Origin: Thermoleophilia bacterium
GTDB lineage: Bacteria; Actinomycetota; Thermoleophilia; BMS3ABIN01
Direction of reading: 5' to 3'
DNA length: 64,000 nucleotides
NCBI GenBank assembly: GCA_014874265.1
Contig: JACWAM010000018.1
Span: 5,955-69,954, forward strand
In this document: one piece after another, positions 23,146 through 60,873 of the stretch
Layout: each line of letters begins with the position of its first letter
Position numbering within the stretch: the first letter of the stretch is position 1
Position numbers and translations under genes: made by a program
The notes under the pieces: generated by a model
Databases searched by the model: none
What the model saw: the letters and a program-made list of their open reading frames with translations, nothing else
Told to the model about the DNA's origin: nothing

Positions 23146-23535
23146 TTAGACTGTTTCTTTTTTTGCGTGACGGGCGCGGTAATCCTCGATTGCTTTTTGG
23201 AGTCCGTCTGAAGCCAGATTAGAGCAATGCATCTTTTGCGGCGGCAGCCCCCCCAGGGCTTCGGCAACTACCTTTCTGGAGATTTCCTGGGCTTCATCCA
23301 GCGTCTTGCCTTTGGCGAGCTCAGTGACCATGCTGCTGGTAGCAATCGCTGCCCCGCAGCCAAGGGTCTTGAACTTGACGTCGTCGATCCGGTCTTGCTC
23401 CTCGTCCACCTTGATGGTAATGCGCATAACGTCTCCGCATTGCGGATTTCCCACTTCCCCGACTCCATCGGGATTTTCGACCTCGCCCATATTGCGCGGA
23501 TTCTGGAAATGATCCATTACCTTTTCGGTATACAT
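23146..23535 (-). CDS. iscU: Fe-S cluster assembly scaffold IscU/NifU-like
   Basis: MYTEKVMDHFQNPRNMGEV...GNPQCGD...LGCGAAIATSS...HCS. Start chosen at the second Met of the track ORF. Confidence 0.85.
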   Translation of the reverse strand: MYTEKVMDHFQNPRNMGEVENPDGVGEVGNPQCGDVMRITIKVDEEQDRIDDVKFKTLGCGAAIATSSMVTELAKGKTLDEAQEISRKVVAEALGGLPPQKMHCSNLASDGLQKAIEDYRARHAKKETV

Positions 23536-23588
23536 ATTCCATCTCTCCTTTATCAAATGCTAATAAATGAACAATTGGCAATCATGAG

Positions 23589-24830
23589 TCAGCTCGCGGC
23601 TTCGCAGTCACATCCCTGAGAGGAGTTCCCCGCCGAGCACTTCTTATTGCCGCGCTTGTAGACGGGCGACATGCTCCTGAGCCGCTCGGCGACGGCCGCG
23701 ATAGTCTCCAGGGCATAATCCACATCTTCCTGAGTATCTGCCTTGGCCATCGTAATCCTCACCGAGCCATGCGCGAGCTCTGCCGGCAGGCCCAGCGCCA
23801 GCAGGATGTGCGATGGCTCCAGACTCCCTGACACGCAGGCGGAGCCGGTAGAGACATAGACGGGCCTGGCGTCACCGGCCGTCGGGTATGACAGCGACAG
23901 CATGATCGACTCGCCTTCTATCCCCTCGATGGAGAAGTTGACATTGCCCGGCAGTCGCTCGGTCCGGTGCCCGTTGATGCGGATGTCATCAATGTTACCC
24001 TCAACCCAGTCAAAGATGTGGTTCCTGAGTCCGGCAAGCCGCGTCGCCTCCGCTTCGAGAGAGTGGCGGGCAATCTCTGACGCCTTACCCATGCCGACAA
24101 TCCCGGGGACGTTATGCGTGCCGGCGCGACGCTTCTTTTCCTGAGTGCCGCCGTGCAGGAGAGGCGTTATCCTGACGCCGTGTCTGATGTACATGGCTCC
24201 GACACCCTTAGGACCATAGAACTTATGCGCCGATGATGAAAGCAGGTCAACCCCAAGATGATTGACATCGACAGGGATGTGTCCAACGGTCTGGGCGGCG
24301 TTTACGTGAAAGATCACGCCCTTTTCCGAGGTTATTTTGCCGATCGCGGTGATTGGCTGGATGGTGCCGATCTCGTGGTTGGCGTGAACGATGGAAACAA
24401 GCACGGTGTCATCCCGGATAGCGGCGGCAACCGCTTCGGGATTGACCACGCCGTCGCTGTCAGTAGGAAGGTAGGTTACTTCCCAGCCTTTTTTCTCGAG
24501 GTAACGCAGAGGCATCAGGATTGAATGATGCTCCGCCACATCGGTGATGATGTGCCGGCCCTTGGATTCCAGCGCGTCTGCAACTCCCTTGATCGCCCAG
24601 TTGTTGCTTTCAGTGGCGCCGCTGGTAAAAAAAATGTCCTTTTGATCGGCGCCGATCAGGTCCGCAAAACTCTGCCTTGCCGCATCGATTGCCTGTTTTG
24701 CCTGGGAGCCCATCGAGTAGAGAGTGGCCGGACTGCCAAATTTCTCTGAAAGCCAGGGCTCCATCGCGTCGATTACTTCTGGGTCCGCCCGGGTAGTGGC
24801 GGCGTTGTCTAAGAATATGGCGTTTTTCAT
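23589..24830 (-). CDS. iscS: cysteine desulfurase (IscS/NifS)
   Basis: 413 aa with the PLP lysine region SSSAHKFYGPKGVG and the SGSACVS active-site Cys loop. Confidence 0.9.
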   Translation of the reverse strand: MKNAIFLDNAATTRADPEVIDAMEPWLSEKFGSPATLYSMGSQAKQAIDAARQSFADLIGADQKDIFFTSGATESNNWAIKGVADALESKGRHIITDVAEHHSILMPLRYLEKKGWEVTYLPTDSDGVVNPEAVAAAIRDDTVLVSIVHANHEIGTIQPITAIGKITSEKGVIFHVNAAQTVGHIPVDVNHLGVDLLSSSAHKFYGPKGVGAMYIRHGVRITPLLHGGTQEKKRRAGTHNVPGIVGMGKASEIARHSLEAEATRLAGLRNHIFDWVEGNIDDIRINGHRTERLPGNVNFSIEGIEGESIMLSLSYPTAGDARPVYVSTGSACVSGSLEPSHILLALGLPAELAHGSVRITMAKADTQEDVDYALETIAAVAERLRSMSPVYKRGNKKCSAGNSSQGCDCEAAS

Positions 24831-24890: not shown

Positions 24891-25565
24891 TCATACCCTT
24901 TTTCTGATCATGAATTTCATCTGGCCGCCGAATTCTTCCCGGCAGATAAACTCGTTTCCAGTCCCAGTGCACCATGCCGGTATATCAGCTTTGGAACCTT
25001 CATCGTCGGCCCACACTTCCAGGATCTCCCGGTGCCGCAAATTCCTCATCTCCTCCGCAATCCTGACAATCGGCAGCGGGCAGGAGTACCCAATACAGTC
25101 GAGCTTTCGGCTCGGGGTTTCGCCGGCCGCCGGGCCTGTTTTCAATCCCGGGCCGAGCCGGCCGGAGATTACATCTTTCAGGCTGGTTTTGCCCAGCACA
25201 TCTTCGCTCACGCTTTGCAGCCTTGACCAGACCCCGGCCAGAGTGCAGCCATCATGGAAATCGCAGCCATCAACTGCTCCTCCGGCGCCGCAACTTGTAG
25301 GAACAACCGGGCCTTGCAAAACATTGACGACCTTGAGCAGGCTGATTTGCTCGGGAGCCTTTCCCAGCAAATAACCTCCCGCTGGTCCCCGTGTGCTTTT
25401 CAGCAGGCCGCCACCCACCAAAGCCCTGAGAACCTGTGTCAGAAACGGCAAAGGTATCCGCTGCCGCTCAGCAATGCCGGTTCGACCAACCGGCTCGCTG
25501 CCTTCGCGAGTAGCAATATCTATCAGGGCCCGCAGGCCGTATTCGCTTTTTGATGAAATCAGCAC
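24891..25565 (-). CDS. Rrf2-family (IscR-like) transcriptional regulator fused to a C-terminal TusA-like sulfur-carrier domain
   Basis: Rrf2 N-terminus (V)LISSKSEYGLRALIDIA with Cys ligands SCGAGGAVDGCDFHDGC. C-terminus LDCIGYSCPLPIVRIAEEM...ILEVWADDEGSKADIPAWC...FMIRK aligns with E. coli TusA (CPxP motif). Start uncertain: GTG 25565 or ATG 25604. Confidence 0.65.
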   Translation of the reverse strand: MLISSKSEYGLRALIDIATREGSEPVGRTGIAERQRIPLPFLTQVLRALVGGGLLKSTRGPAGGYLLGKAPEQISLLKVVNVLQGPVVPTSCGAGGAVDGCDFHDGCTLAGVWSRLQSVSEDVLGKTSLKDVISGRLGPGLKTGPAAGETPSRKLDCIGYSCPLPIVRIAEEMRNLRHREILEVWADDEGSKADIPAWCTGTGNEFICREEFGGQMKFMIRKRV

Positions 25566-25869
25566 GGGATAAAGTTTAATAATGTAGACCGTGTGAGTCA
25601 ACATTAATCAGGCCATTTATACCCGGTGGCTTCATTGGTCAAACAGTTTACTGTCTGATAAGACAGCTAAATATAAGGGATCCTTATGTTGGAATAATGT
25701 GTTTTTTTTGCGGGTGATTTATCAATCGGCATGGCTGGGGGCTGATTTTGGCCCGGGGAAAACTCCCGGATTATCCAGTTCTTTGCCAAGGCCTGACGCG
25801 ATATTCCCAAAGCCGGGCCAGCCCGGAGTCTGTCCAGCAGTTATCCCGCTGTGGCAGGCAGAACTTTTG

Positions 25870-37310: not shown

Positions 37311-37339
37311 TTGACAAAAGCTCTAGGCCACGATATAAT
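37311..37339 (+). promoter_or_regulatory. sigma-A-type promoter TTGACA-17-TATAAT upstream of the Rrf2 regulator/cysK operon
   Basis: ttgacaaaagctctaggccacgatataat inside an AT-rich island. GGAG RBS precedes ATG 37390. Confidence 0.6.
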
Positions 37340-37389
37340 TCACGAAAGATTAAAGCTGATAATACCTATCAAATTTATGGAGTTATCGT

Positions 37390-37830
37390 ATGAACATTTC
37401 AGCTAAGAGCAAGTATGCGGTACGAGCCCTGGTTGAACTGGCGCAGCACAATGGCGGAGCCCCGGTGCCGATTGGTGACATTGCGTCCAGGCGTGACATC
37501 CCCCTTCAGTTCTTGGAACAGCTTTTTTCTAGTCTCCGTAAAGCCGGAATCTTAAACAGCCATCGTGGCGTCCGTGGCGGTTTCAGTTTTAAAAAGCTTC
37601 CGGAAGACGTCAGCGTGCTCGATGTGGTGGAAATTCTTGACGGGAATATTGCTCCCGCTGCCTGCACAATCGGCGGCGAATGCGACAAGCTGAGCCGTTG
37701 CGCGGTTCGCGACGTCTGGGTTGACGCCAAAAAAAGCCTAGAACAGGCGCTTGGCGCCTCCAGCATCGCCGAGCTTGCCGACCGGGAGCAGGCGATGCAG
37801 GAGAATGTCCGGGAGATGTATTACATCTAA
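37390..37830 (+). CDS. Rrf2-family transcriptional regulator (CymR/IscR-like, 3 Cys)
   Basis: MNISAKSKYAVRALVELA... with Cys ligands CTIGGECDKLSRC. Confidence 0.8.
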   Translation: MNISAKSKYAVRALVELAQHNGGAPVPIGDIASRRDIPLQFLEQLFSSLRKAGILNSHRGVRGGFSFKKLPEDVSVLDVVEILDGNIAPAACTIGGECDKLSRCAVRDVWVDAKKSLEQALGASSIAELADREQAMQENVREMYYI

Positions 37831-37867
37831 AGTCGCGGCAAGGTTTTACTGTTAAGGAGGTTGGGTT

Positions 37868-38824
37868 ATGAGAACTGTCGAAACCGGGGCAAAAACCATA
37901 GTTGATGATGTAACTGAACTGATAGGCAACACGCCGATGATCAGGTTACGGCGGCTTGGCGGGGATCAGGCCGGCATGGTCGTGGCGAAGCTTGAGAGTT
38001 TTAATCCGGGTGGCAGCGTCAAGGACCGGATCGGGATTGCCATGATCGAAGCGGCCGAGCACGACGGCAAGATCGTGCCCGGCCAGACCGTCATAATCGA
38101 ACCCACTAGCGGCAACACCGGCATCGCGCTGGCGTTCGTCTGCGCCGCCAAAGGTTACCGTTTAATCCTGACCATGCCCGAAACTATGAGTATTGAGCGG
38201 CGGTCCCTTCTGAAGGCGTTCGGCGCCGAGCTGATTCTAACCCCGGGCCCGGGGGGCATGCGTGGAGCAGTGGAAAAAGCCGAGGAGTTAATCGGCCTTT
38301 ATGATGACGCATTCGTGCCGCAGCAGTTCAATAATCCCGCCAATCCAGAGGTGCATCGGCAATCGACCGCAGAGGAAATCTGGCGTGACACGCAGGGCGC
38401 CGTCGACATCTTTGTGTCGGCCGTCGGTACCGGCGGCACCATTACGGGTGTTGGCGAAGTGATCAAGGAAAGAAAACCCTCCGCGAGGGTAATCGCCGTG
38501 GAGCCCAAGGCGTCGCCGGTGCTTTCCGGCGGCGAAGCCGGACCGCACCGGATTCAGGGCATCGGCGCGGGCTTTGTTCCGGATGTGCTCAATACCGGAA
38601 TTTATGATGAGGTTGTCCAGGTGAGTAATGAAGAGGCCGAGCAGATGGCCCGGCGGCTGGCGCTCGAGGAAGGACTGCTCTGCGGTATCTCCTCAGGGGC
38701 GGCTGCTTTTGGAGCGCTCACGGTTGCGCGCCGGCCCGAAAATAAGGATAAAATGACGGTAGTCCTTCTTCCGGACACGGGAGAACGATATCTGACCACG
38801 CAATTGTTTGGCGATGCCAGATAG
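37868..38824 (+). CDS. cysK: cysteine synthase (CysK/CysM-type PLP enzyme)
   Basis: 318 aa with PLP lysine GGSVKDR and SGNTG. CysK vs CysM cannot be assigned. Confidence 0.85.
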
Positions 38825-38877
38825 GAACGGCGCCCGGGCAGGCGGTTTCTTCAAGGCAATTCCTGCGGGAGGTAGAT

Positions 38878-39117
38878 TTGAATATCAAGGAGGATTTCCT
38901 GCTGGACGCACGCGGTCTCAAGTGCCCCATGCCTTCGGTAAAGACCGCCCTCGCGCTTGAGCAGCTGGGCGGGGGCGGGATTGTCAAGGTGATGATTGAC
39001 GATCCGGTAAGTAAAAAGGATCTGCCGGCGTGGGTGCGCGGAAACGGCCACCAGGTGTTAGGCATTGACGACCGGGATGGTTTTGTTGAGGTATACGTTA
39101 AAAAATCCGGAGGTTAG
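38878..39117 (+). CDS. tusA: TusA-like sulfurtransferase
   Basis: 79 aa, LDARGLKCPMPSVKTALALEQL, CPxP motif. Confidence 0.8.
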   Translation: MNIKEDFLLDARGLKCPMPSVKTALALEQLGGGGIVKVMIDDPVSKKDLPAWVRGNGHQVLGIDDRDGFVEVYVKKSGG

Positions 39118-39118
39118 C

Positions 39119-39448
39119 ATGAATCAACACCACCCCGGTTCAAAAAAGGAAGACAAGCTGTTAGAATTAGAAGACAGGCCGCCGTTGGCGGCTTCTGCTC
39201 TTCATCTGGTCGTGCAAGGGCGGGAGAAGGTTTATCTTGGTCCCCGGGATATGCGGTCTTTGCTGGAAGCTCTGGGCGAGAACCTGTCATACGCCAATGT
39301 GCGTCTCAACGGCACGGTCCTAAACAGGCGGGATTTTGAAAATATCCCTTTGCAAGACGGGGACAGAGTAGATTTCCTTTATTTTATGGGAGGGGGAAGT
39401 TGTTCGATCTCTCCGAAGCTGAAATCGAGCGTTACTCCAGGCATATAA
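39119..39448 (+). CDS. ThiS/MoaD/CysO-like sulfur-carrier protein with an encoded C-terminal tail beyond Gly-Gly
   Basis: ...VRLNGTVLNRRDFENIPLQDGDRVDFLYFMGGG-SCSISPKLKSSVTPGI*. The beta-grasp core ends GGG and the frame runs 18 codons further, overlapping the moeB start. GGAGG RBS precedes ATG 39119. Confidence 0.6.
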   Translation: MNQHHPGSKKEDKLLELEDRPPLAASALHLVVQGREKVYLGPRDMRSLLEALGENLSYANVRLNGTVLNRRDFENIPLQDGDRVDFLYFMGGGSCSISPKLKSSVTPGI

Positions 39449-40230
39449 TCCTGCCCGAGCTGGGTGGCGCGGGGCAGCAGAAACTGAAACAGGCGAGCGT
39501 CCTTGTGGTTGGCGCCGGCGGGCTTGGATCTCCGGCGCTGCTTTACCTTACCGCGGCGGGAGTGGGCCGGATTGGCGTCATCGAGGACGACGTTGTCGAT
39601 TTGACCAATCTTCAGCGCCAGGTTCTACATGGCACCTCTGACGTGGGACGGCCGAAGGTGGTCAGCGCCAGCGAGACGATGAAACAGCTCAACCCGCATG
39701 TCCAGATCGATGTTTACAATCAACGCCTCACCAAGGAAAACATTTTTGACATCATTGAAAAATATGATGTTATTGTCGACGGCGTTGATAACTTTCCGAC
39801 GCGTTACCTTTTAAACGACGCCTGCGTCATGAAGCAGAAAACGCTGGTGGAGGGCGGCATACTCCGCTTTATGGGACTGATCATGAGTATTCGCGGTGGC
39901 GAGACCGCCTGCTACCGCTGCGTTTTTGAGGATCCACCTCCGCCCGGAGCTGTGCCCAGTTGCGCTGAAGCTGGAGTCCTGGGCGCGGTCGCCGGCGTGG
40001 TCGGGACCATGCAGGCCACCGAAGTGCTCAAAATTCTGACTGGATTCGGGCAGCCGCTTTATGATCGGCTACTCCAATTCGACGCCGAGGAGCTCCGTTT
40101 CCACGAGGTTAAGGCAAGGCGCAATCCAAAATGCCCGGTTTGCGGCGAAGATCCCAGTATTACCGAGCTCATCGAGTATGAATACACCTGTGAAACCCAG
40201 ACTCCGCTAGCTGATGCCGGGGGGGATTAA
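39400..40230 (+). CDS. ThiF/MoeB-type E1-like adenylyltransferase (no rhodanese domain)
   Basis: TTG start after RBS ggaggggga. (M)FDLSEAEIERYSRHIILPELGGAGQQKL...VGAGGLGSP with C-terminal CxxC...CPVC Zn site. Confidence 0.8.
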   Translation: MFDLSEAEIERYSRHIILPELGGAGQQKLKQASVLVVGAGGLGSPALLYLTAAGVGRIGVIEDDVVDLTNLQRQVLHGTSDVGRPKVVSASETMKQLNPHVQIDVYNQRLTKENIFDIIEKYDVIVDGVDNFPTRYLLNDACVMKQKTLVEGGILRFMGLIMSIRGGETACYRCVFEDPPPPGAVPSCAEAGVLGAVAGVVGTMQATEVLKILTGFGQPLYDRLLQFDAEELRFHEVKARRNPKCPVCGEDPSITELIEYEYTCETQTPLADAGGD

Positions 40231-40651
40231 TCTTACCCGCTCCCAGCTCGAGGCTGTTTTTGAGCACGCGAAGCGGCAGCAGCCTGAAGAAGCATGCGGT
40301 ATTCTCGCGGGCGATCCGGACGGAAGCGTGCGCCGCGTCTTTTTGATGGAGAACGCCGAGCACAGCTCGATCCTGTATATGATGGACTCGACCGAGCAGT
40401 TCGAGGTTTTTGATCAGATGGAAAAGGATGGCCTTGAACTGGTCGCCATCTTTCATTCTCACCCCCACTCTCCCGCCTTTCCCTCTGCCCGCGACTTGGA
40501 ACTGGCTTTCTATCCGGAATCGCTATACCTGATCGTGTCTCTCATGGATGACGAGCCTCAGTATCATGCCTTCAGGCTCGCCAGAGGCCAGGTTGCTGAA
40601 GCCCCGCTGGTTATTCTGGATGATATAAAAGAGAGCCTTGATGAAGCCTGA
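40214..40651 (+). CDS. JAMM/MPN+ metalloprotease (Mec+/CysO-processing type)
   Basis: EACGIL...HSHPHSPAFPSARD, the JAMM motif. Confidence 0.75.
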   Translation: MPGGINLTRSQLEAVFEHAKRQQPEEACGILAGDPDGSVRRVFLMENAEHSSILYMMDSTEQFEVFDQMEKDGLELVAIFHSHPHSPAFPSARDLELAFYPESLYLIVSLMDDEPQYHAFRLARGQVAEAPLVILDDIKESLDEA

Positions 40652-41477
40652 AACCGGGCCGGCTGGCGCTGCAAATGATTTAAACCGGCTCATTCTTGCC
40701 ATCAAGCCGCTGGATAGCCTGGCGGTGGGATTCTCCGGCGGAGTCGATTCATCGGTAGTGGTAGCCGCTGCGGTTGAAGCGTTGGGAGCGGGAAATGTGG
40801 TGGCCGTTACCTCAGCCTCGGAGACCTTGCCGGCCCGGGAGATGAAAGCAGCCCGCCATCTGGCCCGGAAAATCGGATGCCGCCACGAAATCATCCGGAC
40901 CGGCGAGCTTGAGATGAATGAGTTTGCCGCCAACCCTCCCGACCGCTGTTACTATTGCAAAACGGAGCTGTGGAAACAGGTTAGGAAAATCGCTTCGGAA
41001 TTGGGGCTAAAGAATATTGCTGACGGCGTCAACGCCTCCGATTTGGGAGACTTCCGTCCCGGGATCAGGGCCAGCGACGAATGCGGCGTCGCGCACCCGC
41101 TCGCGGCGATCGGCGCCGGCAAGGAGCAGGTCCGTGGCATCGCCCGGGAGCTGGGCCTTCCCAACTGGGGCAAGCCCGCCGAGGCATGCCTTTCATCCCG
41201 CTTTCCTTACGGTAACACCATTACGGCCGCCGGCCTCAAGCGCGTGGAGCGGGCCGAGGAACTGCTCAAGGAGAACGGGTTTAGGCAGCTGCGCGTTAGA
41301 GACCACGGGGACATCGCCCGCATTGAGGTGCCGCCAGAGGTGTTTCATAAACTGACGAATGGCAGCAGATCAGAAATTGTAAAAGGACTCAAGGAACTTG
41401 GTTATAGCTACGTTACCGTTGACCTGGAAGGGTTCCGGAGTGGCAGCATGAACGAAACGCTAAAAAACAGTTCATAG
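40638..41477 (+). CDS. LarE-like PP-loop ATP pyrophosphatase (TIGR00268 family)
   Basis: SGGVDSS PP-loop, then DRCYYCK...ACLSSRFPYG. Confidence 0.65.
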   Translation: MMKPETGPAGAANDLNRLILAIKPLDSLAVGFSGGVDSSVVVAAAVEALGAGNVVAVTSASETLPAREMKAARHLARKIGCRHEIIRTGELEMNEFAANPPDRCYYCKTELWKQVRKIASELGLKNIADGVNASDLGDFRPGIRASDECGVAHPLAAIGAGKEQVRGIARELGLPNWGKPAEACLSSRFPYGNTITAAGLKRVERAEELLKENGFRQLRVRDHGDIARIEVPPEVFHKLTNGSRSEIVKGLKELGYSYVTVDLEGFRSGSMNETLKNSS

Positions 41478-41482
41478 TCGCC

Positions 41483-41536
41483 AGTTTCTGGTTTTTGAAA
41501 AAAACAATTAAAAAGTGCAGCCCAAAACCAGAAACT
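41483..41536. repeat. 13-bp inverted repeat (agtttctggtttt / aaaaccagaaact) with 28-nt A-rich loop between convergent genes
   Basis: Seen directly; probable bidirectional terminator-like structure. Confidence 0.4.
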
Positions 41537-41553
41537 AAAAACTCGAAGCTGAC

Positions 41554-41811
41554 TTATTCGATGAACGAATCCAGAAACTCGACCTCAATGCCCAGATCCT
41601 GTAAATAGTTGATTGCTCTGTCAAGCTCATTGTCCTCGCCGCTTAATTCCAGGACCATCCAGCCGAATTTCTCGTCGACGTTGGCGCGCCTGATGTTGGG
41701 GATGACATCGAATTCCTTGGCGAGATTGTATGTGACGGGTTTCTGAATCAGACGTTCCGGAAAGGTAAGTTCGAGCCGCTTTGTTCTCATTTTTTCCTCC
41801 TGACAATTCAC
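41554..41811 (-). CDS. small NIL/ACT-like domain protein
   Basis: 85 aa, RLELTFPERLIQKPVTYNLAKEFDVIPNIRRANVDE...GWMVLELSGEDNELDRAINYL. Likely start at MRTKRL (41790). Confidence 0.45.
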   Translation of the reverse strand: MNCQEEKMRTKRLELTFPERLIQKPVTYNLAKEFDVIPNIRRANVDEKFGWMVLELSGEDNELDRAINYLQDLGIEVEFLDSFIE

Positions 41812-41922
41812 CGCTCCGGTGTGGGTATTTTGTTAATATAAAAGATAGATGAACACATTGCCACAGGTCATAAAATTAACAGATTGTTCTCAAATCCGGC
41901 ATGGTTGTTATCGTAGTGGAAT

Positions 41923-42771
41923 TTGCCGTTATTTAGTTTTGTGAAGCGAGATATGAAATTTTTTCGAAAAACAGCTTCACTGATGGCCGCCACCGGCGCC
42001 GCTAGCTATTTCTGGTTTAACCGCGGCGGCGATCTGAGCCGCGCCATGACAGCAATCAGGAGCGACATTGAAGCTATTCGGGAGCGCGACCCGGCGGCCG
42101 CAAGTCTGATTGAGACGCTAACATGCTATTCCGGACTACACGCCATCTTCCTGCACCGCCTGGCAAATTTTCTCTATCAGGAGAAGATCCCCCTGGCTCC
42201 CAGGCTGGTTTCGCAGATGAACCGTTTCATCACAGGGATCGAGATCCACCCGGCGGCGCGGATCGGCGAAGGTTTTTTTATCGATCACGGTGCCGGCGTT
42301 GTGATCGGAGAGACTGCCGAAGTTGGTGACAATGTAACACTTTATCAGGGCGTTACTCTCGGAGGCACTGGCAAGGAGTGCGGCAAGAGGCATCCGACTC
42401 TGCTCGATGGCGTCACCGTCGGAGCGGGAGCGAAAGTTCTGGGAGCGGTGACGATTGGCAAGAATGCCAAAATCGGCGCGGGCAGCATAGTCATCCACGA
42501 TGCGCCGGCGGATTCGACCGTGGTGGGCAACCCCGGCCGGCCGGTTAGAGAGCGGGGACGCAAGGTGGGGGCCGCCGATATCGACTGGACGCACCTGCCG
42601 GACCCGGTTGCCGACGCGATGCAATCGCTGGTCCGCCGTGTCGTCGAGCTGGAGAACGAGTTCAAGGAAGCTTTCCCGGAGAAGCGCGAGGAGATTGAGA
42701 AGGCGCAAGAGCAGGGCGAACGCGAGATTGAAAAAGTTTTTGATTATTATCACAGAAGCGGCAACAAATAG
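41923..42771 (+). CDS. cysE: serine O-acetyltransferase
   Basis: 282 aa with hexapeptide-repeat core GIEIHPAARIGEGFFIDHGAGVVIGETAEVGDNVTLYQGVTLGG and an unusual charged C-terminal extension. Confidence 0.85.
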   Translation: MPLFSFVKRDMKFFRKTASLMAATGAASYFWFNRGGDLSRAMTAIRSDIEAIRERDPAAASLIETLTCYSGLHAIFLHRLANFLYQEKIPLAPRLVSQMNRFITGIEIHPAARIGEGFFIDHGAGVVIGETAEVGDNVTLYQGVTLGGTGKECGKRHPTLLDGVTVGAGAKVLGAVTIGKNAKIGAGSIVIHDAPADSTVVGNPGRPVRERGRKVGAADIDWTHLPDPVADAMQSLVRRVVELENEFKEAFPEKREEIEKAQEQGEREIEKVFDYYHRSGNK

Positions 42772-42953: not shown

Positions 42954-43262
42954 TTGAGCAAAGTACGGAGGTTAGTACTTGACGTTCTTAAACCGCACCA
43001 GCCGACCATACTTGACCTGGCGGTCAAACTGGGCGACCTGGAAGGTATCGAGGGAACCGACGTCGTTCTGAACGAGATTGACAACAAGGTGGAAAATATC
43101 AAGATCACGCTGGAAGGATCGCATATAAACTTTGATGAAGTGGCGGCAGTAGTCCAGGAGAGTGGCGGCAGTATCCACAGCATCGACAAGGTGTCCACCG
43201 GCCGCGAGCTGATCGAGGAAGCAAATACGCCCCAGGATATCACTGCCCGCTGGATGAGATAA
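42954..43262 (+). CDS. DUF211-family protein
   Basis: 102 aa, VRRLVLDVLKPHQP. Confidence 0.5.
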   Translation: MSKVRRLVLDVLKPHQPTILDLAVKLGDLEGIEGTDVVLNEIDNKVENIKITLEGSHINFDEVAAVVQESGGSIHSIDKVSTGRELIEEANTPQDITARWMR

Positions 43263-43328
43263 GGGGGCCGACGGCTCCTGAAAATTCCATCTATTCGCAC
43301 CCTTCGTGAATATCATCGCATCGCCCGT

Positions 43329-43868
43329 GTGGGCGAGATCGTCCGGCGCTACTTCGCACTCAATGCGTTTGACGGAGCGCTCACTATTCTCGGAGTTCTG
43401 GTGGGTGGTTATTTCGGCCAGATCAGGAGCGCGGGCTCGGTCATCACGCTGGTATTAACTGCCGCGTTTGCCATCGGTATTTCCGGTTTTTACGGGGCAT
43501 ATATGATCGAGCGGGCGGAGCGGCGCCGTTCGCTGGCTGAACTGGAGCGGTCAACCTTAAGCAACCTGGAGCATACCGAGATCGGCCGGGCCTCGGTTTA
43601 CGCCACCGTCGTCGTATCGCTGGTTGATGGTCTCTCTCCTTTTGGAGCGTCGCTGATCGCCGTCTCGCCGTTTTTTTTGGGGAGGTCGCTCGGTATAGAA
43701 ACGGAATATTACGCCGCCTTTGCGCTGGCGTTCGCCGAACTGTTTGGCTTGGGCATCTTCCTCGGGTTGATTTCCCGGGAGCATGTGGTTTTTTCCGGGT
43801 TCAAGATGGTGGTCGCAGGGCTTCTCTGCCTGTTGGTGGGATACCTGCTTAAGGGAGCGGCGCTTTAA
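43329..43868 (+). CDS. VIT1/CCC1-like membrane protein
   Basis: 179 aa, FALNAFDGALTILGVLVGG with 4-5 TM helices. Confidence 0.4.
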   Translation: MGEIVRRYFALNAFDGALTILGVLVGGYFGQIRSAGSVITLVLTAAFAIGISGFYGAYMIERAERRRSLAELERSTLSNLEHTEIGRASVYATVVVSLVDGLSPFGASLIAVSPFFLGRSLGIETEYYAAFALAFAELFGLGIFLGLISREHVVFSGFKMVVAGLLCLLVGYLLKGAAL

Positions 43869-46224: not shown

Positions 46225-46662
46225 TCAGCGGCAATCCCAAGATTCCTGCTCCAGCTTCTCTCTTAGAGCCGCCTTTGCTTCGCTGCCCTGCCTGAGCAGC
46301 TTCACTTCCGCTTCCAGGTTGGAAGGTTTCATCCGCAAGATCCAGCCGGCTCCGTAGGGATCCTCATTGATGAGGCCTGCCTTGGTCCGCAGATTCTCGT
46401 TTATCTCGATGATCTTGCCGGAGAGCGGCGCGTGAACCGGACCGACATACTTCCCGCTTTCGATGATGGCGACGCGCTTGCCCATTGAAACATCGTCGCC
46501 GATTTCGCGTGGCCGGAGAAAAAGAATGTTGCCGGCAATATGCTGGCCGACATCGGTCAGCCCGGCGGTGACGTTGCCGTCGTCATCAAACCGGACCCAC
46601 ATCTGATCCTCGACGTCGTAAAGGATTCCGTCTTCGGGAAAAACGCAGCCCTCTATTTCCAC
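46225..46662 (-). CDS. glycine-cleavage H-protein-like (lipoyl-carrier, LbpA-like) protein
   Basis: 145 aa, GTG start, AIIESGKYVGPVHAPLSGKII (GcvH lipoyl-Lys region). Stand-alone with no gcvT/gcvP nearby. Confidence 0.65.
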   Translation of the reverse strand: MEIEGCVFPEDGILYDVEDQMWVRFDDDGNVTAGLTDVGQHIAGNILFLRPREIGDDVSMGKRVAIIESGKYVGPVHAPLSGKIIEINENLRTKAGLINEDPYGAGWILRMKPSNLEAEVKLLRQGSEAKAALREKLEQESWDCR

Positions 46663-46726
46663 CTTGCTCCCCCTTGCTGTAACCCGGCAAAGCCTTGCGA
46701 ATCAAAAAATCCAGACAAACGAAAAA

Positions 46727-46755
46727 ATTCTATTCCTGGAGCGGGTTCTTGTCAA
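46727..46755 (-). promoter_or_regulatory. sigma-A-type promoter TTGACA-17-TAGAAT for the gcvH-like gene
   Basis: Minus strand ttgacaagaacccgctccaggaatagaat. Confidence 0.5.
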
Positions 46756-46842
46756 TTGACGTGTTGTTACCCGTATCGACCGAGATTGGCGCCCGGCTCG
46801 CCCGTCCGGTAGGTCAGGGCCCCTCCTTCCCGGGTTTTTGGA

Positions 46843-47184
46843 TCACATGCCGGGCCGGGCTCCAAGCGAGGCGCGGCGGCGTTTATCCGCCCGTATTTGT
46901 GGATCGTCGTCAAGCCACCCGATAAGCAGGGCCAGGACTGCGGGGGCATACCGGTTCTGCTTGCTGCTGCTTAAGACGTACCATACCCTGCGTCCGTCCC
47001 GCCTGCGGGTGACCAGCCCGGCGCTACTCAAGACCGCCAGGTGACTTGAGACAGTTGACTGGCGGGCCCTGATAACGGCCACCATCTGGTCAACCGTGAG
47101 CTCGCCGCCTTCCAGCAGCTTTAAAATCCTGACCCTCGTGGGATCGCCTGCGGCTTTCATAACCTGTTCAAATTGCCGGATCAA
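46843..47184 (-). CDS. ArsR/SmtB-family transcriptional regulator (no cysteines)
   Basis: 113 aa, TTG start, GDPTRVRILKLL...LTVDQMVAVIRARQSTVSSHLAVL. Confidence 0.8.
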   Translation of the reverse strand: MIRQFEQVMKAAGDPTRVRILKLLEGGELTVDQMVAVIRARQSTVSSHLAVLSSAGLVTRRRDGRRVWYVLSSSKQNRYAPAVLALLIGWLDDDPQIRADKRRRASLGARPGM

Positions 47185-47283
47185 GGTTGCTCCGGTCTGG
47201 AATTGCCATTATTCCAGGCAGCATCATAATATAAAATGCTATTATATCGATTTTTATCGATGCTTAAAATCATGCTTAATGAA

Positions 47284-47307
47284 ATACATCGTTGTAAAAC
47301 GATGTAT
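47284..47307. promoter_or_regulatory. perfect 10-4-10 palindrome ATACATCGTT-gtaa-AACGATGTAT in AT-rich ArsR upstream region (candidate operator)
   Basis: Seen directly. Lies between the tandem repeat and a TATAAT-like box upstream of the ArsR gene. Confidence 0.5.
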
Positions 47308-47355
47308 TATTTCAGAGAGAATAACTGCTCGCTCAGCATAGCCAACAACATATCA

Positions 47356-47395
47356 AGTGCGGGGATTGACGAGATAGTGCGGGGATTGACGAGAT
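47356..47395. repeat. perfect tandem duplication 2 x 20 bp (agtgcggggattgacgagat)
   Basis: Seen directly. Lies between the dsrE-like stop and the arsR promoter. Confidence 0.8.
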
Positions 47396-47443
47396 ACGGC
47401 CGAGCGAGGACGAAGCGCAGCAAGAGGACGTTCGGGAGATCAG

Positions 47444-47827
47444 TTAAAAATACATTACCTTGTCGGCTTCCATAACGGCTTCGATGATCGCGGCAGCCCC
47501 CCGCATTTCGCAACCATCGATGAGATCATCCATGGTTAGATCTTCCGCCTCCATGGCTTGGGCGCATACCATGAATTTCACGCTGTCCCGCCGGGCGCGG
47601 TCCAGCCAGGTCCTTAAATTGACACCGCTATCAGGGACAAGCTCAATTTTTTCTGCCGTCTCCCTTCTCAGAATTGTTACCCCTTCCATCATGAACCAAA
47701 TGGAAGCCTCGATGTCCATCGCTACCGCTGTAATGGCAAGATAAAGAGGAGCATAGGTTCTTTTTGGCTCCCTGATGCCACTGGTTTGAATTATCAGGAT
47801 AGACTGCTTCTCTATGGATGCTTCCAC
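47444..47827 (-). CDS. DsrE/DsrF-like family protein
   Basis: 127 aa, SILIIQTSGIREPKRTYAPLYLAITAVAMD...FMVCAQA with a conserved Cys. Confidence 0.7.
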   Translation of the reverse strand: MEASIEKQSILIIQTSGIREPKRTYAPLYLAITAVAMDIEASIWFMMEGVTILRRETAEKIELVPDSGVNLRTWLDRARRDSVKFMVCAQAMEAEDLTMDDLIDGCEMRGAAAIIEAVMEADKVMYF

Positions 47828-48154
47828 CGGACATCCTCTGCAGTTGCGGACCGGTTTTTATGGTTTTTATCGCTGCCCAGATGTTCGCAGTTTTGTTGCG
47901 GCCCAAACTGAATTTAGCACCCTCCGGCAATCAATGTCAACCAGACAGGACAATGGGGCGACTATTTGGCCAGACCGGAAAATGATCGACCGGAACGTGG
48001 CATTAAATGAGCTGATGGGATGATTTTGACGGTTGTTTCGCTCAATGAGCGTCACCACCGTTGATCACGCTACCCGGTTTGACTGTGACGGGATCGCCTG
48101 ATATCTTTTTTCCTGGAAATTGACGGGGCCGGGTGCCTTTTTCTTCTATCTCGG

Positions 48155-48335
48155 CAGGTAAACCTGCTTGGATGGAGTTCTAAGGAGAATAGGGAAGCCG
48201 GTGCAAATCCGGCGCGGGCCCGCCGCTGTAACCGGGAATCATCCCCTTAGTTACGTCACTGGACGCAAGTCTGGGAAGGCGGGGATTGTCGAAACCCGGG
48301 AGCCAGAAGACCTGCCCGGCAAACTGTAAATGCCG
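48155..48335 (+). promoter_or_regulatory. cobalamin (AdoCbl-type) riboswitch aptamer
   Basis: aatAGGGAAGCCGGTGCAAATCCGGCGCGGGCCCGCCGCTGTAACCGGG ... GTCACTGG ... GGGAAGGCGG ... GAGCCAGAAGACCTGCCCGG. B12-box and flanking conserved blocks are present; this does not match the TPP consensus. Confidence 0.75.
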
Positions 48336-48377
48336 CTCTTCGTGGACGGAGAGGACCGGCTGGCCGGTCTGACTGAT

Positions 48378-48405
48378 AACCCCATGCCTGCGGCGTGGGG
48401 TTTTT
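48378..48405 (+). terminator. intrinsic terminator of the riboswitch expression platform
   Basis: aacccca-tgcctgcggcg-tggggtt followed by TTT. RBS GAGGAGG then ATG 48445 follows. Confidence 0.6.
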
Positions 48406-48444
48406 CGTTCCGAGAGGGCGGCGCTGAACGAGGAGGAAGAAGAT

Positions 48445-49719
48445 ATGGCTACACAATTGGAACGGGCCCGGGCGGGCATTATTACAACAGAAATGGAGAA
48501 GGTGGCAGCTGAGGAGGACCTGTCGCCGGAGCAGATCCGGCAAGGCATGGTTGATGGTTCAATCGTGATTATCAGCGGGAACGGCCGCGCTGAAACCGCC
48601 ACCGGGATTGGGAGAGGCTTAAGAACGAAGGTCAATGCCAGTATTGGCACCTCATCCGACCTGATCGACATTGAGATGGAGCTGGAAAAGGCGGCTGTCG
48701 CGGCGGATACGGGCGCCGATACGCTCATGGAGCTAAGCACCGCCGGCGATCTTGATGATGTTCGCCGGCGCGTCCTGGCCGCAGTTTCCGTGCCGGTGGG
48801 AAATGTCCCTCTGTACCAGGCCAGCGCCGAAGCTGCGGCCAGTCTGGGCTCGAATCTGAAGATGACGGAAGATCTTCTGTTTGAGTTGGTGGAAAGGCAG
48901 TCAGCCGATGGTATCGGTTTCATGGCGATCCACTGTGGTATTAACCGGCTGACGCTAAGCGTCCTCAAGTCGCAAGGAGGGCGCAGCGGCGGTCTGGTAA
49001 GCCGTGGCGGGGCGTTTATGTCGGCATGGATGCAGGCGACTGATTCAGATAACCCGCTTTACGAACAATTTGACCGTCTGATTGAAATTCTGCATCAATA
49101 TGACGTCGTGCTGAGCCTGGGCAACGGCATGCGCGCCGGCGCCGTTAGCGACGCTACCGACAAGGCACAGATCCAGGAGTTAATCATCAACTGTGAACTG
49201 GCGGACCGGGCTCGGGACGCCGGGGTACAAGCGATGCTGGAAGGTCCCGGTCATATCCCCATCGACGAGATCAAGGCCAATGTCATCCTGGAGAAGAAGA
49301 TGAGCGGCGGCAAACCGTTTTATATGCTGGGGCCGATCACGACTGATGTCGCTCCTGGATATGACCATATTACGGCGGCTATCGGGTCTGCCTGGGCAGC
49401 CGCCTACGGTACGGATTTCATCTGTTACGTGACGCCAGCCGAGCACCTGGGCCTCCCCTACCCTGACGATGTGCGCCAGGGGGTCATGTCGTCCCGGATT
49501 GCCGCTCACGTGGGCGATATGATCAAGCTGGGCCGCCGCCAGGCGGATTACGAAATGGGCAAGGCCCGGCGGGATCTGGATTGGGAGAAGCAGTTTGCGC
49601 TGGCGCTTGATCCGGAGCAGGCCCGTTCGGTTCGCGATGCGCGCCCCGGCTCCGGCAGCGAGGGCTGCAGTATGTGCGGCGATCAGTGCGCTTTAAAGGT
49701 CGGAGAAGCCGCCTGCTAG
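48445..49719 (+). CDS. ThiC-family radical-SAM enzyme; candidate 5-hydroxybenzimidazole synthase (BzaF-like) rather than thiamin ThiC
   Basis: 424 aa ThiC fold with C-terminal CSMCGDQC Cys cluster. Preceded by a cobalamin riboswitch. Confidence 0.6.
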   Translation: MATQLERARAGIITTEMEKVAAEEDLSPEQIRQGMVDGSIVIISGNGRAETATGIGRGLRTKVNASIGTSSDLIDIEMELEKAAVAADTGADTLMELSTAGDLDDVRRRVLAAVSVPVGNVPLYQASAEAAASLGSNLKMTEDLLFELVERQSADGIGFMAIHCGINRLTLSVLKSQGGRSGGLVSRGGAFMSAWMQATDSDNPLYEQFDRLIEILHQYDVVLSLGNGMRAGAVSDATDKAQIQELIINCELADRARDAGVQAMLEGPGHIPIDEIKANVILEKKMSGGKPFYMLGPITTDVAPGYDHITAAIGSAWAAAYGTDFICYVTPAEHLGLPYPDDVRQGVMSSRIAAHVGDMIKLGRRQADYEMGKARRDLDWEKQFALALDPEQARSVRDARPGSGSEGCSMCGDQCALKVGEAAC

Positions 49720-49752
49720 GCCTGCCAGGAAGAAGCCAAAGCCAGAAAGCCA

Positions 49753-49785
49753 GAAAGGGCGGATATTCAATCCGCCCTTTCTTAA
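49753..49785. terminator. hairpin gaaagggcgga-tattcaa-tccgccctttc between the convergent ThiC-paralog and dsrE-like genes
   Basis: 10-bp stem followed by a TTTCTT tract; usable on both strands. Confidence 0.6.
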
Positions 49786-49819
49786 TACCTACCTACGCCT
49801 TCTTTGCCGGTGAGTCACG

Positions 49820-50287
49820 TCAGATAAACAGGCTCATGTCGGCATCGACGGCGTAATCAAGGAACGCGCCGGCGCCACAGGTCGGCTCTACTTCATCAAT
49901 CAGATCTTCGGGATTAATGCCCATGATGTCGAGCGTCAGCTGACAGGGCCACATTTTGACACCGGTTTCATGACATATCTCGATAAATTCAGGGATAGAC
50001 GGCGTGTTTGACTTCTTGATCATATCCTTCATCATCTTGGTTGCCATCGCCGTCATGCCAGGAAGCATACCAACAATGTTCGGCACGGACACTGGCATCG
50101 CTGGATTGGCGATTGGCGACACCTTTAGGTTGGCATATTTCTTTTTGTTGACAATATCCAGCCCGTAAAAAGTGAAAAAGATGCCGCATTCCATGTCCAG
50201 CGCCGCGGCGGTGCTAGCCAGGATAAATACCGGGTACGCCATATCCAGCGTTCCCTTGGACGCGATAATCGCTAAACGCTTAGCCAT
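49820..50287 (-). CDS. DsrE/DsrF-like family protein (COG2044-type)
   Basis: 155 aa, MAKRLAIIASKGTLDMAYPVFILASTAAALDMECGIFFTFYGL. Confidence 0.65.
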   Translation of the reverse strand: MAKRLAIIASKGTLDMAYPVFILASTAAALDMECGIFFTFYGLDIVNKKKYANLKVSPIANPAMPVSVPNIVGMLPGMTAMATKMMKDMIKKSNTPSIPEFIEICHETGVKMWPCQLTLDIMGINPEDLIDEVEPTCGAGAFLDYAVDADMSLFI

Positions 50288-50295
50288 CTAGTAGC

Positions 50296-50550
50296 TCACT
50301 TCCCTTTCCGAACAAAGAAGTGAAATACTTCACCGCCTTCTTCTTCAGTGAAGCCCAGAAACTCGTTACCCGACCTTTTTGCCCACGCCGGCATATCCCC
50401 CTTCGAACCGGCATCAGTACCGATTACCTCGAGCACCTGGCCGGGTTCAAGAGCGTCCATCGCCTTTTTTGCCTTCACTACCGGCATCGGGCAACACAGC
50501 CCCTTTACGTCAAGAACAGAATCCGGCTTTACATCGATTGTCTCTGCCAT
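50296..50550 (-). CDS. tusA: TusA-like sulfurtransferase
   Basis: MAETIDVKPDSVLDVKGLCCPMPVVKAKKAM, CPxP motif. Start chosen at MAETID, the internal Met of track ORF 50296..50580. Confidence 0.8.
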   Translation of the reverse strand: MAETIDVKPDSVLDVKGLCCPMPVVKAKKAMDALEPGQVLEVIGTDAGSKGDMPAWAKRSGNEFLGFTEEEGGEVFHFFVRKGK

Positions 50551-58526: not shown

Positions 58527-59411
58527 CTACTGGCTCCTGCCCTCTCTAATCCGTGCTTCACGGGCAGCTCTCTCTGCCACCTCGCGCGCCCGCTTCTCAT
58601 CAACGGCGCGGCGCTGTTCCTCGGCCAACTGAGGCTTCAGCCTGAGCTGCTGCGATATGCCTAACATATACTTGATGTAATCGAAAGCAAAGTGCATTAG
58701 CTCAATCTCGTCATTTTTAATTTTTTCCAACCGCTCGGGTTCGACATCGAATATCTCCAGGAAGCGGCTTTCTAGCACGTAACGTCTAAAAGCATCGATA
58801 TCATAACTTGCCAGGTAGAACATTTTCTGCCGGCGCTCCCGGTCTTCATCTTCACGCGGAAGGTTTTGCTTCATCATGATATTCTTCCATTCAAGATTAA
58901 GCTCGTCTGCGCGGGCAGCCTCCTGATCTTCTCGCCATTTCCCAATCGTCCATTGCCGGTCTTCGTCAAAGCCGCGGCAGTGATCCTCCTTGATGATCAC
59001 ATAAAACTCCTGATGGACCGGATCTTCATCCTCTTTTTCACTGGCTGTCCGATGTGTCGCCTGCCCAACCGGGTAGTAACGGCAGGCGGCCGGCCGGTCC
59101 GTATAGATGCGGCAGCCCTCTTTCTCCGCGACAAAGGGACAAAGTTTTTGATCATCTTCGTTCATTTTAATGAAGACGAGCGGATGGGTGGTTTTTTCGT
59201 CTTCCCGATAGCGGGTGTACCGGGCCAGAAACTCAGTGCTGCTCAGTCCCAACCGGTTTTTCATTCGGATGACATCATGTGGCGTCAGCAGCAACTCAAT
59301 ATTGCGGCAGCAGCGGGTAAAGCATGAGATGCCCGGATAGCACCGGAAATTGAACTCCGATTCCAATTCGAATTTAGCCGGTATGACTGATTTGTTGTTT
59401 AGGGAAACCAT
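58527..59411 (-). CDS. YkgJ-like Cys-cluster (putative Fe-S/Zn) protein with charged C-terminal coiled-coil
   Basis: FNFRCYPGISCFTRCC...CPFVAEKEGCRIYTDRPAACRYYP, then an Arg/Glu-rich C-terminus. Confidence 0.5.
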   Translation of the reverse strand: MVSLNNKSVIPAKFELESEFNFRCYPGISCFTRCCRNIELLLTPHDVIRMKNRLGLSSTEFLARYTRYREDEKTTHPLVFIKMNEDDQKLCPFVAEKEGCRIYTDRPAACRYYPVGQATHRTASEKEDEDPVHQEFYVIIKEDHCRGFDEDRQWTIGKWREDQEAARADELNLEWKNIMMKQNLPREDEDRERRQKMFYLASYDIDAFRRYVLESRFLEIFDVEPERLEKIKNDEIELMHFAFDYIKYMLGISQQLRLKPQLAEEQRRAVDEKRAREVAERAAREARIREGRSQ

Positions 59412-59513
59412 AACTTGTCTTACCTATTGTAAAGCATTTTGCCGCAAAAAAACGCGGGCGGCCGCATCTTAGGCAGGACCCGCCCGCAGTCAGATCTTCT
59501 AAAAAAGAAGAGC

Positions 59514-60863: not shown

Positions 60864-60873
60864 CTCATCCCTC

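Follow-up and report, generated by a model that had tools for sequence, protein, structure and literature searches.

Carrier proteins bearing a thiocarboxylate donate sulfur in three characterised enzyme–carrier pairings, CysM/CysO, MetY/HcyS and, as the third such route, MetM/MetO, in which the carrier MetO is matured by Mec and activated by MoeZ. A class of gene neighbourhoods combining ThiS/MoaD, JAB and E1 genes (type 4e) was catalogued by Iyer, Burroughs and Aravind (2006; PMC1779556), who noted that its E1 ‘always lacks’ a rhodanese domain, that SirA, predicted to be rhodanese-like in action, is ‘always’ present, and that the class is tied to sulfur-assimilation genes and O-acetylhomoserine sulfhydrylase. 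Here we analyse a cassette of this kind in a stretch of 64,000 nt from Thermoleophilia bacterium (GCA_014874265.1, contig JACWAM010000018.1, positions 5,955 to 69,954 of the forward strand; hereafter, the window), where, at positions 37311–42771, it lies among genes for an Rrf2-family regulator, the cysteine synthesis enzymes CysK and CysE, and a LarE-type sulfur insertase. The characterised example of type 4e is said to be the HcyS/HcyF/HcyD/MetY system of Wolinella succinogenes, attributed to Krishnamoorthy and Begley (2011).

Three further systems bear on the locus. In tRNA 2-thiolation by Thermus thermophilus TtuA/TtuB/TtuC, the PP-loop ATPase, which has a [4Fe-4S] cluster bound by three Cys residues, is encoded alongside a ThiS-like carrier and an E1 lacking rhodanese, and the thiocarboxylate of the carrier loads the cluster at its open iron site. 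LarE belongs to another PP-loop subfamily, one that acts on a small molecule. The [4Fe-4S] class of LarE has been defined for the Thermotoga maritima enzyme, which in vitro draws sulfur from cysteine plus IscS, leaves sulfide unused and needs a protein-mediated donor, TtuA/TtuB being cited as the precedent. Finally, the C-terminal pentapeptide YMFYI of Staphylococcus aureus CymR inserts into the active site of CysK with nanomolar affinity.

Compared with these systems, the locus is a real, conserved operon, but a modest variant joining known systems rather than a new pathway. We regard it as probable, with moderate confidence, that it represents a vertically conserved combination of a CymR-like Rrf2 regulator, CysE and CysK1-type enzymes, an HcyS-type carrier cassette and LarE, with the thiocarboxylate on the carrier as the likely source of sulfur.

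The carrier cassette and the neighbouring cysteine synthesis genes

Open reading frame (ORF) listing combined with profile searches against Pfam and NCBIfam recovered, in the expected order and with the expected motifs, all nine genes that the original prediction, made from the DNA letters and ORF translations, had placed here. The sulfur-carrier route which it described as complete is represented by four consecutive genes on the forward strand. The first encodes a TusA/SirA sulfur carrier with the CPMP cysteine (LKCPMP; 38878–39117; PF01206, 81 bits), 78–85% identical across the syntenic loci, and the second a ThiS-like, HcyS-type carrier precursor (39119–39448; PF02597, TIGR01683), of which the mature MGGG end is reached at 39397 and is followed by a 16-residue tail (39398–39445) overlapping moeB. 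All ThiS orthologs end in F/Y-M-G-G-G plus a non-conserved tail of 1–16 residues (16 in the window, 10 in locus L022, 2 each in L002, L023 and L025, and 1 in L030), which suggests that the carrier is made as a precursor in need of trimming by a peptidase, presumably the JAMM protein, as is established for HcyS/HcyD and QbsE/QbsD. Its best relative of solved structure is the Geobacter metallireducens ‘ThiS’ (2K5P/3CWI), with an identical ...FLYFMGGG end; CysO was not matched in this search against solved structures. The third gene encodes a MoeB/ThiF-type E1 adenylyltransferase of 276 aa (39400–40230), in which ThiF is the only domain (PF00899, 284 bits) and a rhodanese domain is absent, as had been predicted; it carries two CxxC pairs and a loop cysteine (SCAEAGV), is most similar among solved proteins to ThiF and MoeB, and is 82–86% identical in the syntenic loci. 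The fourth encodes a Prok-JAB, JAMM/MPN+ metallopeptidase resembling HcyD and Mec+ (40214–40651; PF14464, 85 bits), with an intact E...HxH...S..D motif (HSHPHSPAFPSARD) and an uncharacterised protein, 2KKS, as its best solved relative; the gene overlaps both moeB and larE.

Judged by gene content, this cassette is the type 4e combination of TusA (SirA), rhodanese-less E1, JAB and ThiS already catalogued in 2006, and it further resembles the HcyS system in that the carrier has residues beyond the Gly-Gly and that a gene for a pyridoxal phosphate (PLP)-dependent sulfhydrylase adjoins the cassette. It differs in that the partner is an O-acetylserine sulfhydrylase of CysK1 type together with CysE, not an O-acetylhomoserine sulfhydrylase, and in the addition of a CymR-like Rrf2 regulator, LarE and a NIL-domain protein. 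The original prediction held that TusA replaces the missing rhodanese and that this substitution lies outside described systems; the replacement is reasonable, but not new, having been predicted for SirA by Iyer et al. (2006). No sulfite reductase, 3′-phosphoadenosine 5′-phosphosulfate (PAPS) reductase, ATP sulfurylase or MetY was found among the scanned ORFs of the window.

Directly upstream of the cassette is the gene for an O-acetylserine sulfhydrylase (37868–38824, forward strand) of the O-acetylserine sulfhydrylase A (OASS-A)/CysK1 type; it reaches 452 bits with TIGR01139, for which the cutoff is 351. Its best solved relative is Mycobacterium tuberculosis CysK1 (2Q3B, 444 bits), CysM-type chains score at most 253 bits, M. 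tuberculosis CysM is absent from the top 60 PDB matches, and the score against the CysM equivalog model (304 bits) lies under the cutoff of 394. The likeness to the mycobacterial CysM–CysO–Mec+ route that had been suggested for this locus does not extend to homology, which points instead to the HcyS-type cassette, given that CysO is unmatched and CysK is of CysK1 type. The overall logic of the M. tuberculosis CysO–CysM–Mec+–MoeZ pathway may nevertheless be the same, with a thiocarboxylate and an activated serine giving a carrier–cysteine adduct from which a JAMM hydrolase frees cysteine. The differences are that the sulfhydrylase is the ortholog of M. tuberculosis CysK1, not of CysM; that the carrier is not CysO-like and requires trimming, whereas the CysO type has a free Gly-Gly end; that the E1 lacks the rhodanese domain of MoeZ; and that the serine donor is presumably O-acetylserine, cysE being adjacent, and not O-phosphoserine.

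The serine O-acetyltransferase gene, cysE, lies beyond larE on the same strand (41923–42771; TIGR01172, 238 bits), with a start at 41923, 41953 or 41983. Its product ends in ...DYYHRSGNK (42745–42771) and is without the usual CysK-binding Ile tail. The tail is missing in exactly the five loci that carry TusA–ThiS–JAMM, and the usual CysK-docking end GxGI is present in the relatives without these three genes (L026–28, L042 and L068). This distribution fits, weakly because it reflects a single evolutionary event, a CysK active site left free for another partner.

The first gene of the operon encodes an Rrf2-family regulator (37390–37830, forward strand; PF02082, 119 bits), whose three cysteines are of the cluster type and whose C-terminus reads MYYI. 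It scores 125 bits against the Rrf2 superfamily model and 91 bits against the CymR model (cutoff 195), and it also falls below the IscR equivalog cutoff. The Cys triad and the terminal M-Y-Y-I are kept in all cluster Rrf2 orthologs: the window protein ends in EMYYI (37816–37830), orthologs in L002 and L022–L028 in M-Y-Y-I, and those in L042 and L079 in MYFI and TYYI, respectively; MYYI is likewise the C-terminus of 4CIC, an Rrf2-family regulator of solved structure. The resemblance of EMYYI to the CysK-docking YMFYI of CymR agrees with the CymR-like, three-cysteine regulator that had been predicted, and makes it plausible that the Rrf2 protein works with the adjacent CysK much as CymR does, while also sensing through an Fe-S cluster. 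As in the CymR–CysK systems of Bacillus and Staphylococcus, the regulator is encoded together with cysK; unlike CymR, it lies under the CymR equivalog cutoff and has three cysteines, as Fe-S-binding Rrf2 proteins typically do.

The gene overlaps (49 nt between thiS and moeB, 17 nt between moeB and the JAMM gene, and 14 nt between the JAMM gene and larE) support co-transcription and translational coupling. The interval from the Rrf2 gene through larE thus looks like one translationally coupled operon, in line with the co-oriented, tightly packed arrangement that had been proposed. It is preceded by the clean promoter also noted earlier, a sigma-70-type TTGACA-17-TATAAT (37311–37339, forward strand) matching the consensus at 12 of 12 positions and the sole such match in the scanned region; TTGACA with a 17-nt spacer is likewise found upstream of the Rrf2 orthologs in L002, L022, L023 and L025.

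A comparison of gene neighbourhoods, one of the checks suggested with the original prediction, showed that the block recurs in metagenome-assembled genomes (MAGs) of Thermoleophilia and Gaiellales, with protein identities put at 61–92%. Beyond near-identical copies, the closest relatives of LarE are 61–67% identical and come from MAGs of Thermoleophilia, Gaiellales and ‘Actinobacteria’. Five loci from Thermoleophilia/Gaiellales MAGs (L002 and L022–L025) carry the full block of 11 genes in the same order, Rrf2–CysK–TusA–ThiS–MoeB–JAMM–LarE–NIL–CysE–DUF211–VIT1, with protein identities of 55–94%. The flanks are likewise syntenic: one comprises MurC, AI-2E, RtcB and archease, the other UvrD, GcvH-like, ArsR, DsrE, ThiC, DsrE2 and TusA. 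Since the flanks are as conserved as the block, conservation by itself is no proof of functional coupling.

Identity and genomic contexts of LarE

The last gene of the coupled series (40638–41477, forward strand; probable start ATG 40641) encodes a PP-loop sulfur insertase of the [4Fe-4S] LarE type, scoring 321 bits against TIGR00268 (cutoff 150) and carrying the motifs SGGVDSS and DRCYYCK. It aligns with the Lactiplantibacillus plantarum LarE at 183 bits. All 22 homologs compared keep residues C104, C107, C184, S187, R219 and R221; in the alignment to 5UDQ, the serine and the two arginines map to Ser180, Arg212 and Arg214 of the L. plantarum enzyme, the ligands of the phosphate of P2CMN, whereas the CxxC pair has a Cys in place of Trp97 and the third Cys lies one residue off the position of Cys176. 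The T. maritima LarE shares these features, among them the PP-loop SGGxDS, the CxxC...C cysteines, the last of which is likewise displaced by one residue from L. plantarum Cys176, and the Ser/Arg/Arg ligands. What differs is the context: the window larE lies behind a thiocarboxylate cassette, between Rrf2/CysK and CysE, and not with larB and larC.

Genomic contexts of LarE were sampled by a pattern scan of JGI metagenomes, which yielded 80 loci with 44–52% identity, many of them on short contigs. Neighbours were clustered across loci, in place of greedy ORF calling, which on high-GC loci produced spurious antisense ORFs, and the clusters were checked against Pfam. LarB and/or LarC occur near LarE in 15 of the 80 loci, CysK in 10, MnmA and a ThiI-like PP-loop protein in 7 each, Rrf2 in 6, NIL or NIL-ferredoxin proteins in about 6, HcyBio in 4 and a MoeB-type E1 in 2, plus the truncated L068. 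The larB/larC and cys contexts (15 and 12 of the 80 loci) do not overlap in any locus, with about 2 overlaps expected, a difference that is not significant. A search of genome contigs with a single LarE protein returned mostly LarEs of Gemmatimonadota, with no cluster genes nearby.

cysK is found near larE in unrelated LarE clades (L071, L079, L088, L107, L046, L097, L100 and L102), often with an Rrf2 gene, and in L071, L079, L088 and L107 it lies about 50 nt upstream of larE. HcyBio and NIL are further neighbours in L100 and L102, joined by MnmA and a ThiI-like gene in the former and by a cysteine desulfurase in the latter. A gene for a class-V aminotransferase resembling cysteine desulfurases is located directly 3′ of LarE in the Gemmatimonadales locus L003 (11049–12260) and in the metagenome locus L102 (7838–9007), an adjacency that matches the supply of sulfur from cysteine and IscS reported in vitro for the T. 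maritima LarE. A 2026 survey of Thi4 neighbourhoods includes LarE, CysK, ThiS/ThiF, HcyBio and MnmA among recurring sulfur-related neighbours. In the literature, we found no analysis or explanation of a link between LarE and cysteine; one survey table gives both as Thi4 neighbours.

The original prediction took the TusA substitution and the LarE-like gene as signs of a second thiocarboxylate-dependent product and pointed to a phylogeny of the PP-loop protein as a check. In a neighbour-joining tree of LarE, the larB/larC-linked and cys-linked proteins, the window protein included, interleave without forming a separate subfamily; the clade of the window LarE has a bootstrap value of 60% and its Thermoleophilia-like sub-clade one of 96%. 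The window LarE is 51% identical to the best larB/larC-linked LarE and 40% identical to the proven L. plantarum enzyme. Given this interleaving and the full set of LarE sequence features, we take the gene to encode a true LarE that sulfur-supply operons have repeatedly recruited, and the suggested second product to be most simply the precursor of the nickel-pincer cofactor rather than a new one.

Proposed sulfur flow and competing explanations

The sulfur-transfer steps and the regulation, which we infer from the observed gene identities, motifs, tails, synteny and recurrent linkage, would proceed as follows. CysE would produce O-acetylserine, to be consumed by the CysK1-type sulfhydrylase. 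In parallel, the JAMM peptidase would cut the 1–16 residue tail off the ThiS-like precursor and expose the Gly-Gly end, the rhodanese-less MoeB would adenylate the exposed Gly, and the persulfide of TusA, or sulfide, would turn the adenylated carrier into a thiocarboxylate; the TusA persulfide may be charged by DsrE/TusA proteins or by an IscS-like desulfurase encoded elsewhere in the window. By analogy with MetY/HcyS, CysM/CysO and MetM/MetO, the ThiS thiocarboxylate is the likely sulfur donor for CysK and would attack the aminoacrylate formed there from the O-acetylserine made by CysE, after which the JAMM protein may free the cysteine bound to the carrier. Additionally or alternatively, the thiocarboxylate may serve the open site of the LarE cluster, whose fourth iron it would load for the thiolation of P2CMN in the way that TtuB loads TtuA, LarE being most likely a genuine sulfur insertase of nickel-pincer cofactor synthesis. 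The MYYI tail of the Rrf2 regulator probably docks into CysK, so that the CymR-like regulator and CysK together would set expression by O-acetylserine and Fe-S status.

Several observations weigh against this scheme. CysK is of the CysK1/OASS-A type, not of the CysM type known to take a carrier thiocarboxylate, and the cassette of the Nitrospirota locus L110, the one such locus checked, adjoins a PALP gene whose product is just 38% identical to the window CysK. The 64-kb window contains no larB, larC or larA, and none turned up in the roughly 20 kb covered of each syntenic locus. The conservation is in large part plain vertical synteny inside one lineage. Furthermore, LarE still stands beside Rrf2 and CysE in relatives without ThiS, JAMM and TusA: L042 has the arrangement Rrf2–CysK–MoeB–LarE–CysE, the truncated L068 the same MoeB–LarE–CysE order followed by DUF211–VIT1, and L026–28 the arrangement ThiF(345 aa)–Rrf2–(CysK)–LarE–CysE. 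The conserved core across the LarE clade is Rrf2, an E1, LarE and CysE; ThiS, TusA and JAMM are dispensable in cis, and the link of LarE is not strictly to the carrier protein.

These arrangements lend themselves to an explanation in which the cassette serves LarE, or other thiolations, and not cysteine; CysE and CysK would run the standard route from sulfide, with their place at the operon head owed mainly to a CymR–CysK sensing module, and the thiocarboxylate made by TusA, ThiS, MoeB and JAMM would load the [4Fe-4S] cluster of LarE. In both L042 and L068, MoeB directly precedes and overlaps LarE, and an E1 accompanies LarE throughout the actinobacterial clade. An independent locus, L030, repeats the series ThiS–MoeB–JAMM–LarE, and the canonical CysK1 type of the window CysK, the protein-mediated donor required by the T. 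maritima LarE, which does not use sulfide, and the TtuA/TtuB precedent all point in the same direction. However, all characterised cassettes of this kind feed a PLP sulfhydrylase encoded next to them, and L030 itself has a MetY-like gene (Cys/Met-PLP) directly upstream of ThiS. In addition, the loci whose CysE is without the CysK-blocking tail are exactly those with the cassette, as would be expected if the carrier needed access to the CysK site. We consider it possible, though doubtful, that cysteine synthesis is excluded from the function of the cassette in this way.

Two related ideas concern LarE itself. According to the first, which we advance tentatively and as rather unlikely, the [4Fe-4S] LarE would be fed by the ThiS-like thiocarboxylate made by TusA, MoeB and JAMM, in the manner of TtuA/TtuB, and, in a bolder form, the LarEs linked to CymR and CysK would act in sulfur assimilation, apart from the nickel-pincer cofactor. 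The second dispenses with nickel-pincer synthesis altogether, the LarE-like enzyme making another thiocarboxylate-dependent product or having a direct role in sulfur assimilation under CymR control. The absence of larA, larB and larC from the window and the syntenic loci would fit the latter idea, as would the tight and ancient tie to Rrf2 and CysE, including a 4-nt overlap with cysE in L027 and L028, the presence of cysK near LarE in 10 of the 80 loci, often immediately upstream, and a CymR-type regulon, which suggests induction under cysteine limitation and would be odd for a consumer of sulfur. Yet the residues for LarE chemistry and for binding of the P2CMN phosphate are all invariant, the TIGR00268 equivalog cutoff is exceeded twofold, and cys-linked and larB/larC-linked LarEs interleave in the tree. 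The LarE of L030, moreover, is 71% identical to that of L054, a member of a larE–larB–larC operon in which larB and larC trail larE; and, with linkage to larB or larC seen in just 15 of 80 loci, many on short contigs, LarE is often encoded apart from its partners. A LarE-like enzyme divorced from the nickel-pincer cofactor therefore appears improbable. Finally, although the wider flanks (MurC, AI-2E, RtcB, archease, UvrD and GcvH) are as syntenic as the block, inherited gene order without functional coupling, with LarE, DUF211 and VIT merely neighbours of cys genes in one actinobacterial lineage, is very unlikely in view of the start/stop codon overlaps from thiS through larE, the independent recurrences in unrelated LarE clades (L030, L071/L088/L107, L079, L097 and L100/L102) and the inclusion of LarE among sulfur-related neighbours in the published Thi4 survey.

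If the ThiS thiocarboxylate feeds the CysK1-type enzyme, carrier-dependent cysteine synthesis would reach beyond CysM, and a fourth enzyme–carrier pairing would stand beside CysM/CysO, MetY/HcyS and MetM/MetO. If LarE is the recipient, the common [4Fe-4S] LarE class would gain the in vivo sulfur donor that it lacks. With its Fe-S-type cysteines and its CymR-like, presumably CysK-docking tail, the regulator offers a testable case of dual sensing, of O-acetylserine and Fe-S status, in the presence of a CysE without its competing tail. Current understanding is not overturned, the parts and the cassette type being already catalogued.

Flanking signals and neighbouring sulfur genes

Between the −10 box of the promoter and the ribosome-binding site of the Rrf2 gene lies an imperfect palindrome, CTGATA-N5-TATCAA (37356–37372, forward strand), which is partially conserved in L002, L025 and L022. 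A search for further copies in the window gave 4 matches against 1.2 expected, only one of them a good copy, and the palindrome is a weak candidate for the Rrf2 operator. The convergent larE and NIL genes are separated by an inverted repeat with a long loop (41481–41538; CAGTTTCTGGTTTT ... AAAACCAGAAACT), read from the sequence, which is a possible bidirectional terminator.

The flanking NIL-domain gene and cysE were both found where they had been expected. The former (41554–41811, reverse strand; PF09383, 74 bits; likely start ATG 41790) encodes a stand-alone protein of 78 aa, with orthologs of the same length in L022–L025. A stand-alone NIL protein, also of 78 aa and 49% identical to that of the window, is encoded in the Nitrospirota thiocarboxylate cluster L109 (8424–8660), together with TusA, ThiF, JAB, a threonine-synthase-like PALP gene and ThiS. 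More generally, Nitrospirota relatives of the JAMM protein lie in TusA–ThiF–JAB clusters with ThiS and a PLP gene of roughly 411 aa that resembles threonine synthase and that we read as MetM-like. Small NIL proteins may be a regular, uncharacterised component of thiocarboxylate amino-acid clusters. A role of the window NIL protein as a MetO-type sulfur carrier was considered and rejected, the protein having no Gly-Gly end.

Downstream of cysE are genes for a DUF211 protein and a VIT1-like membrane protein (42954–43868, forward strand; PF02680, 114 bits, and a weak VIT1 match), syntenic in L002, L022–25 and L068. The pair is always located 3′ of cysE throughout the actinobacterial clade, even in the distant L068 (2654–3622), and has a possible role in iron handling.

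Three further groups of sulfur-related or redox genes were observed in the window. At 46225–50538, a second sulfur-trafficking group comprises genes for a GcvH-like protein, an ArsR-type regulator, DsrE, ThiC, a DsrE of the DrsE_2 type and another TusA; it is syntenic in L023–L025 and resembles carrier sets tied to the handling of sulfane sulfur, and the TusA of the operon could receive its charge from it. At 58527–63986, on the reverse strand, a heterodisulfide-reductase-like set consists of a protein with a CxxCxxCC domain, a 4Fe-4S dicluster protein, an HdrA-like flavoprotein of 796 aa carrying a fused FlpD/MvhD domain, and a 240-aa ORF without a Pfam match. Lastly, a single ORF of 237 aa (24891–25604, reverse strand) encodes an Rrf2 regulator fused to a C-terminal TusA domain and lies, on the same strand, directly upstream of genes for a class-V aminotransferase (23589–24830), probably an IscS-like cysteine desulfurase, and a NifU_N/IscU scaffold (23146–23556); it is unusual for a regulator to contain a persulfide-carrier domain of its own.

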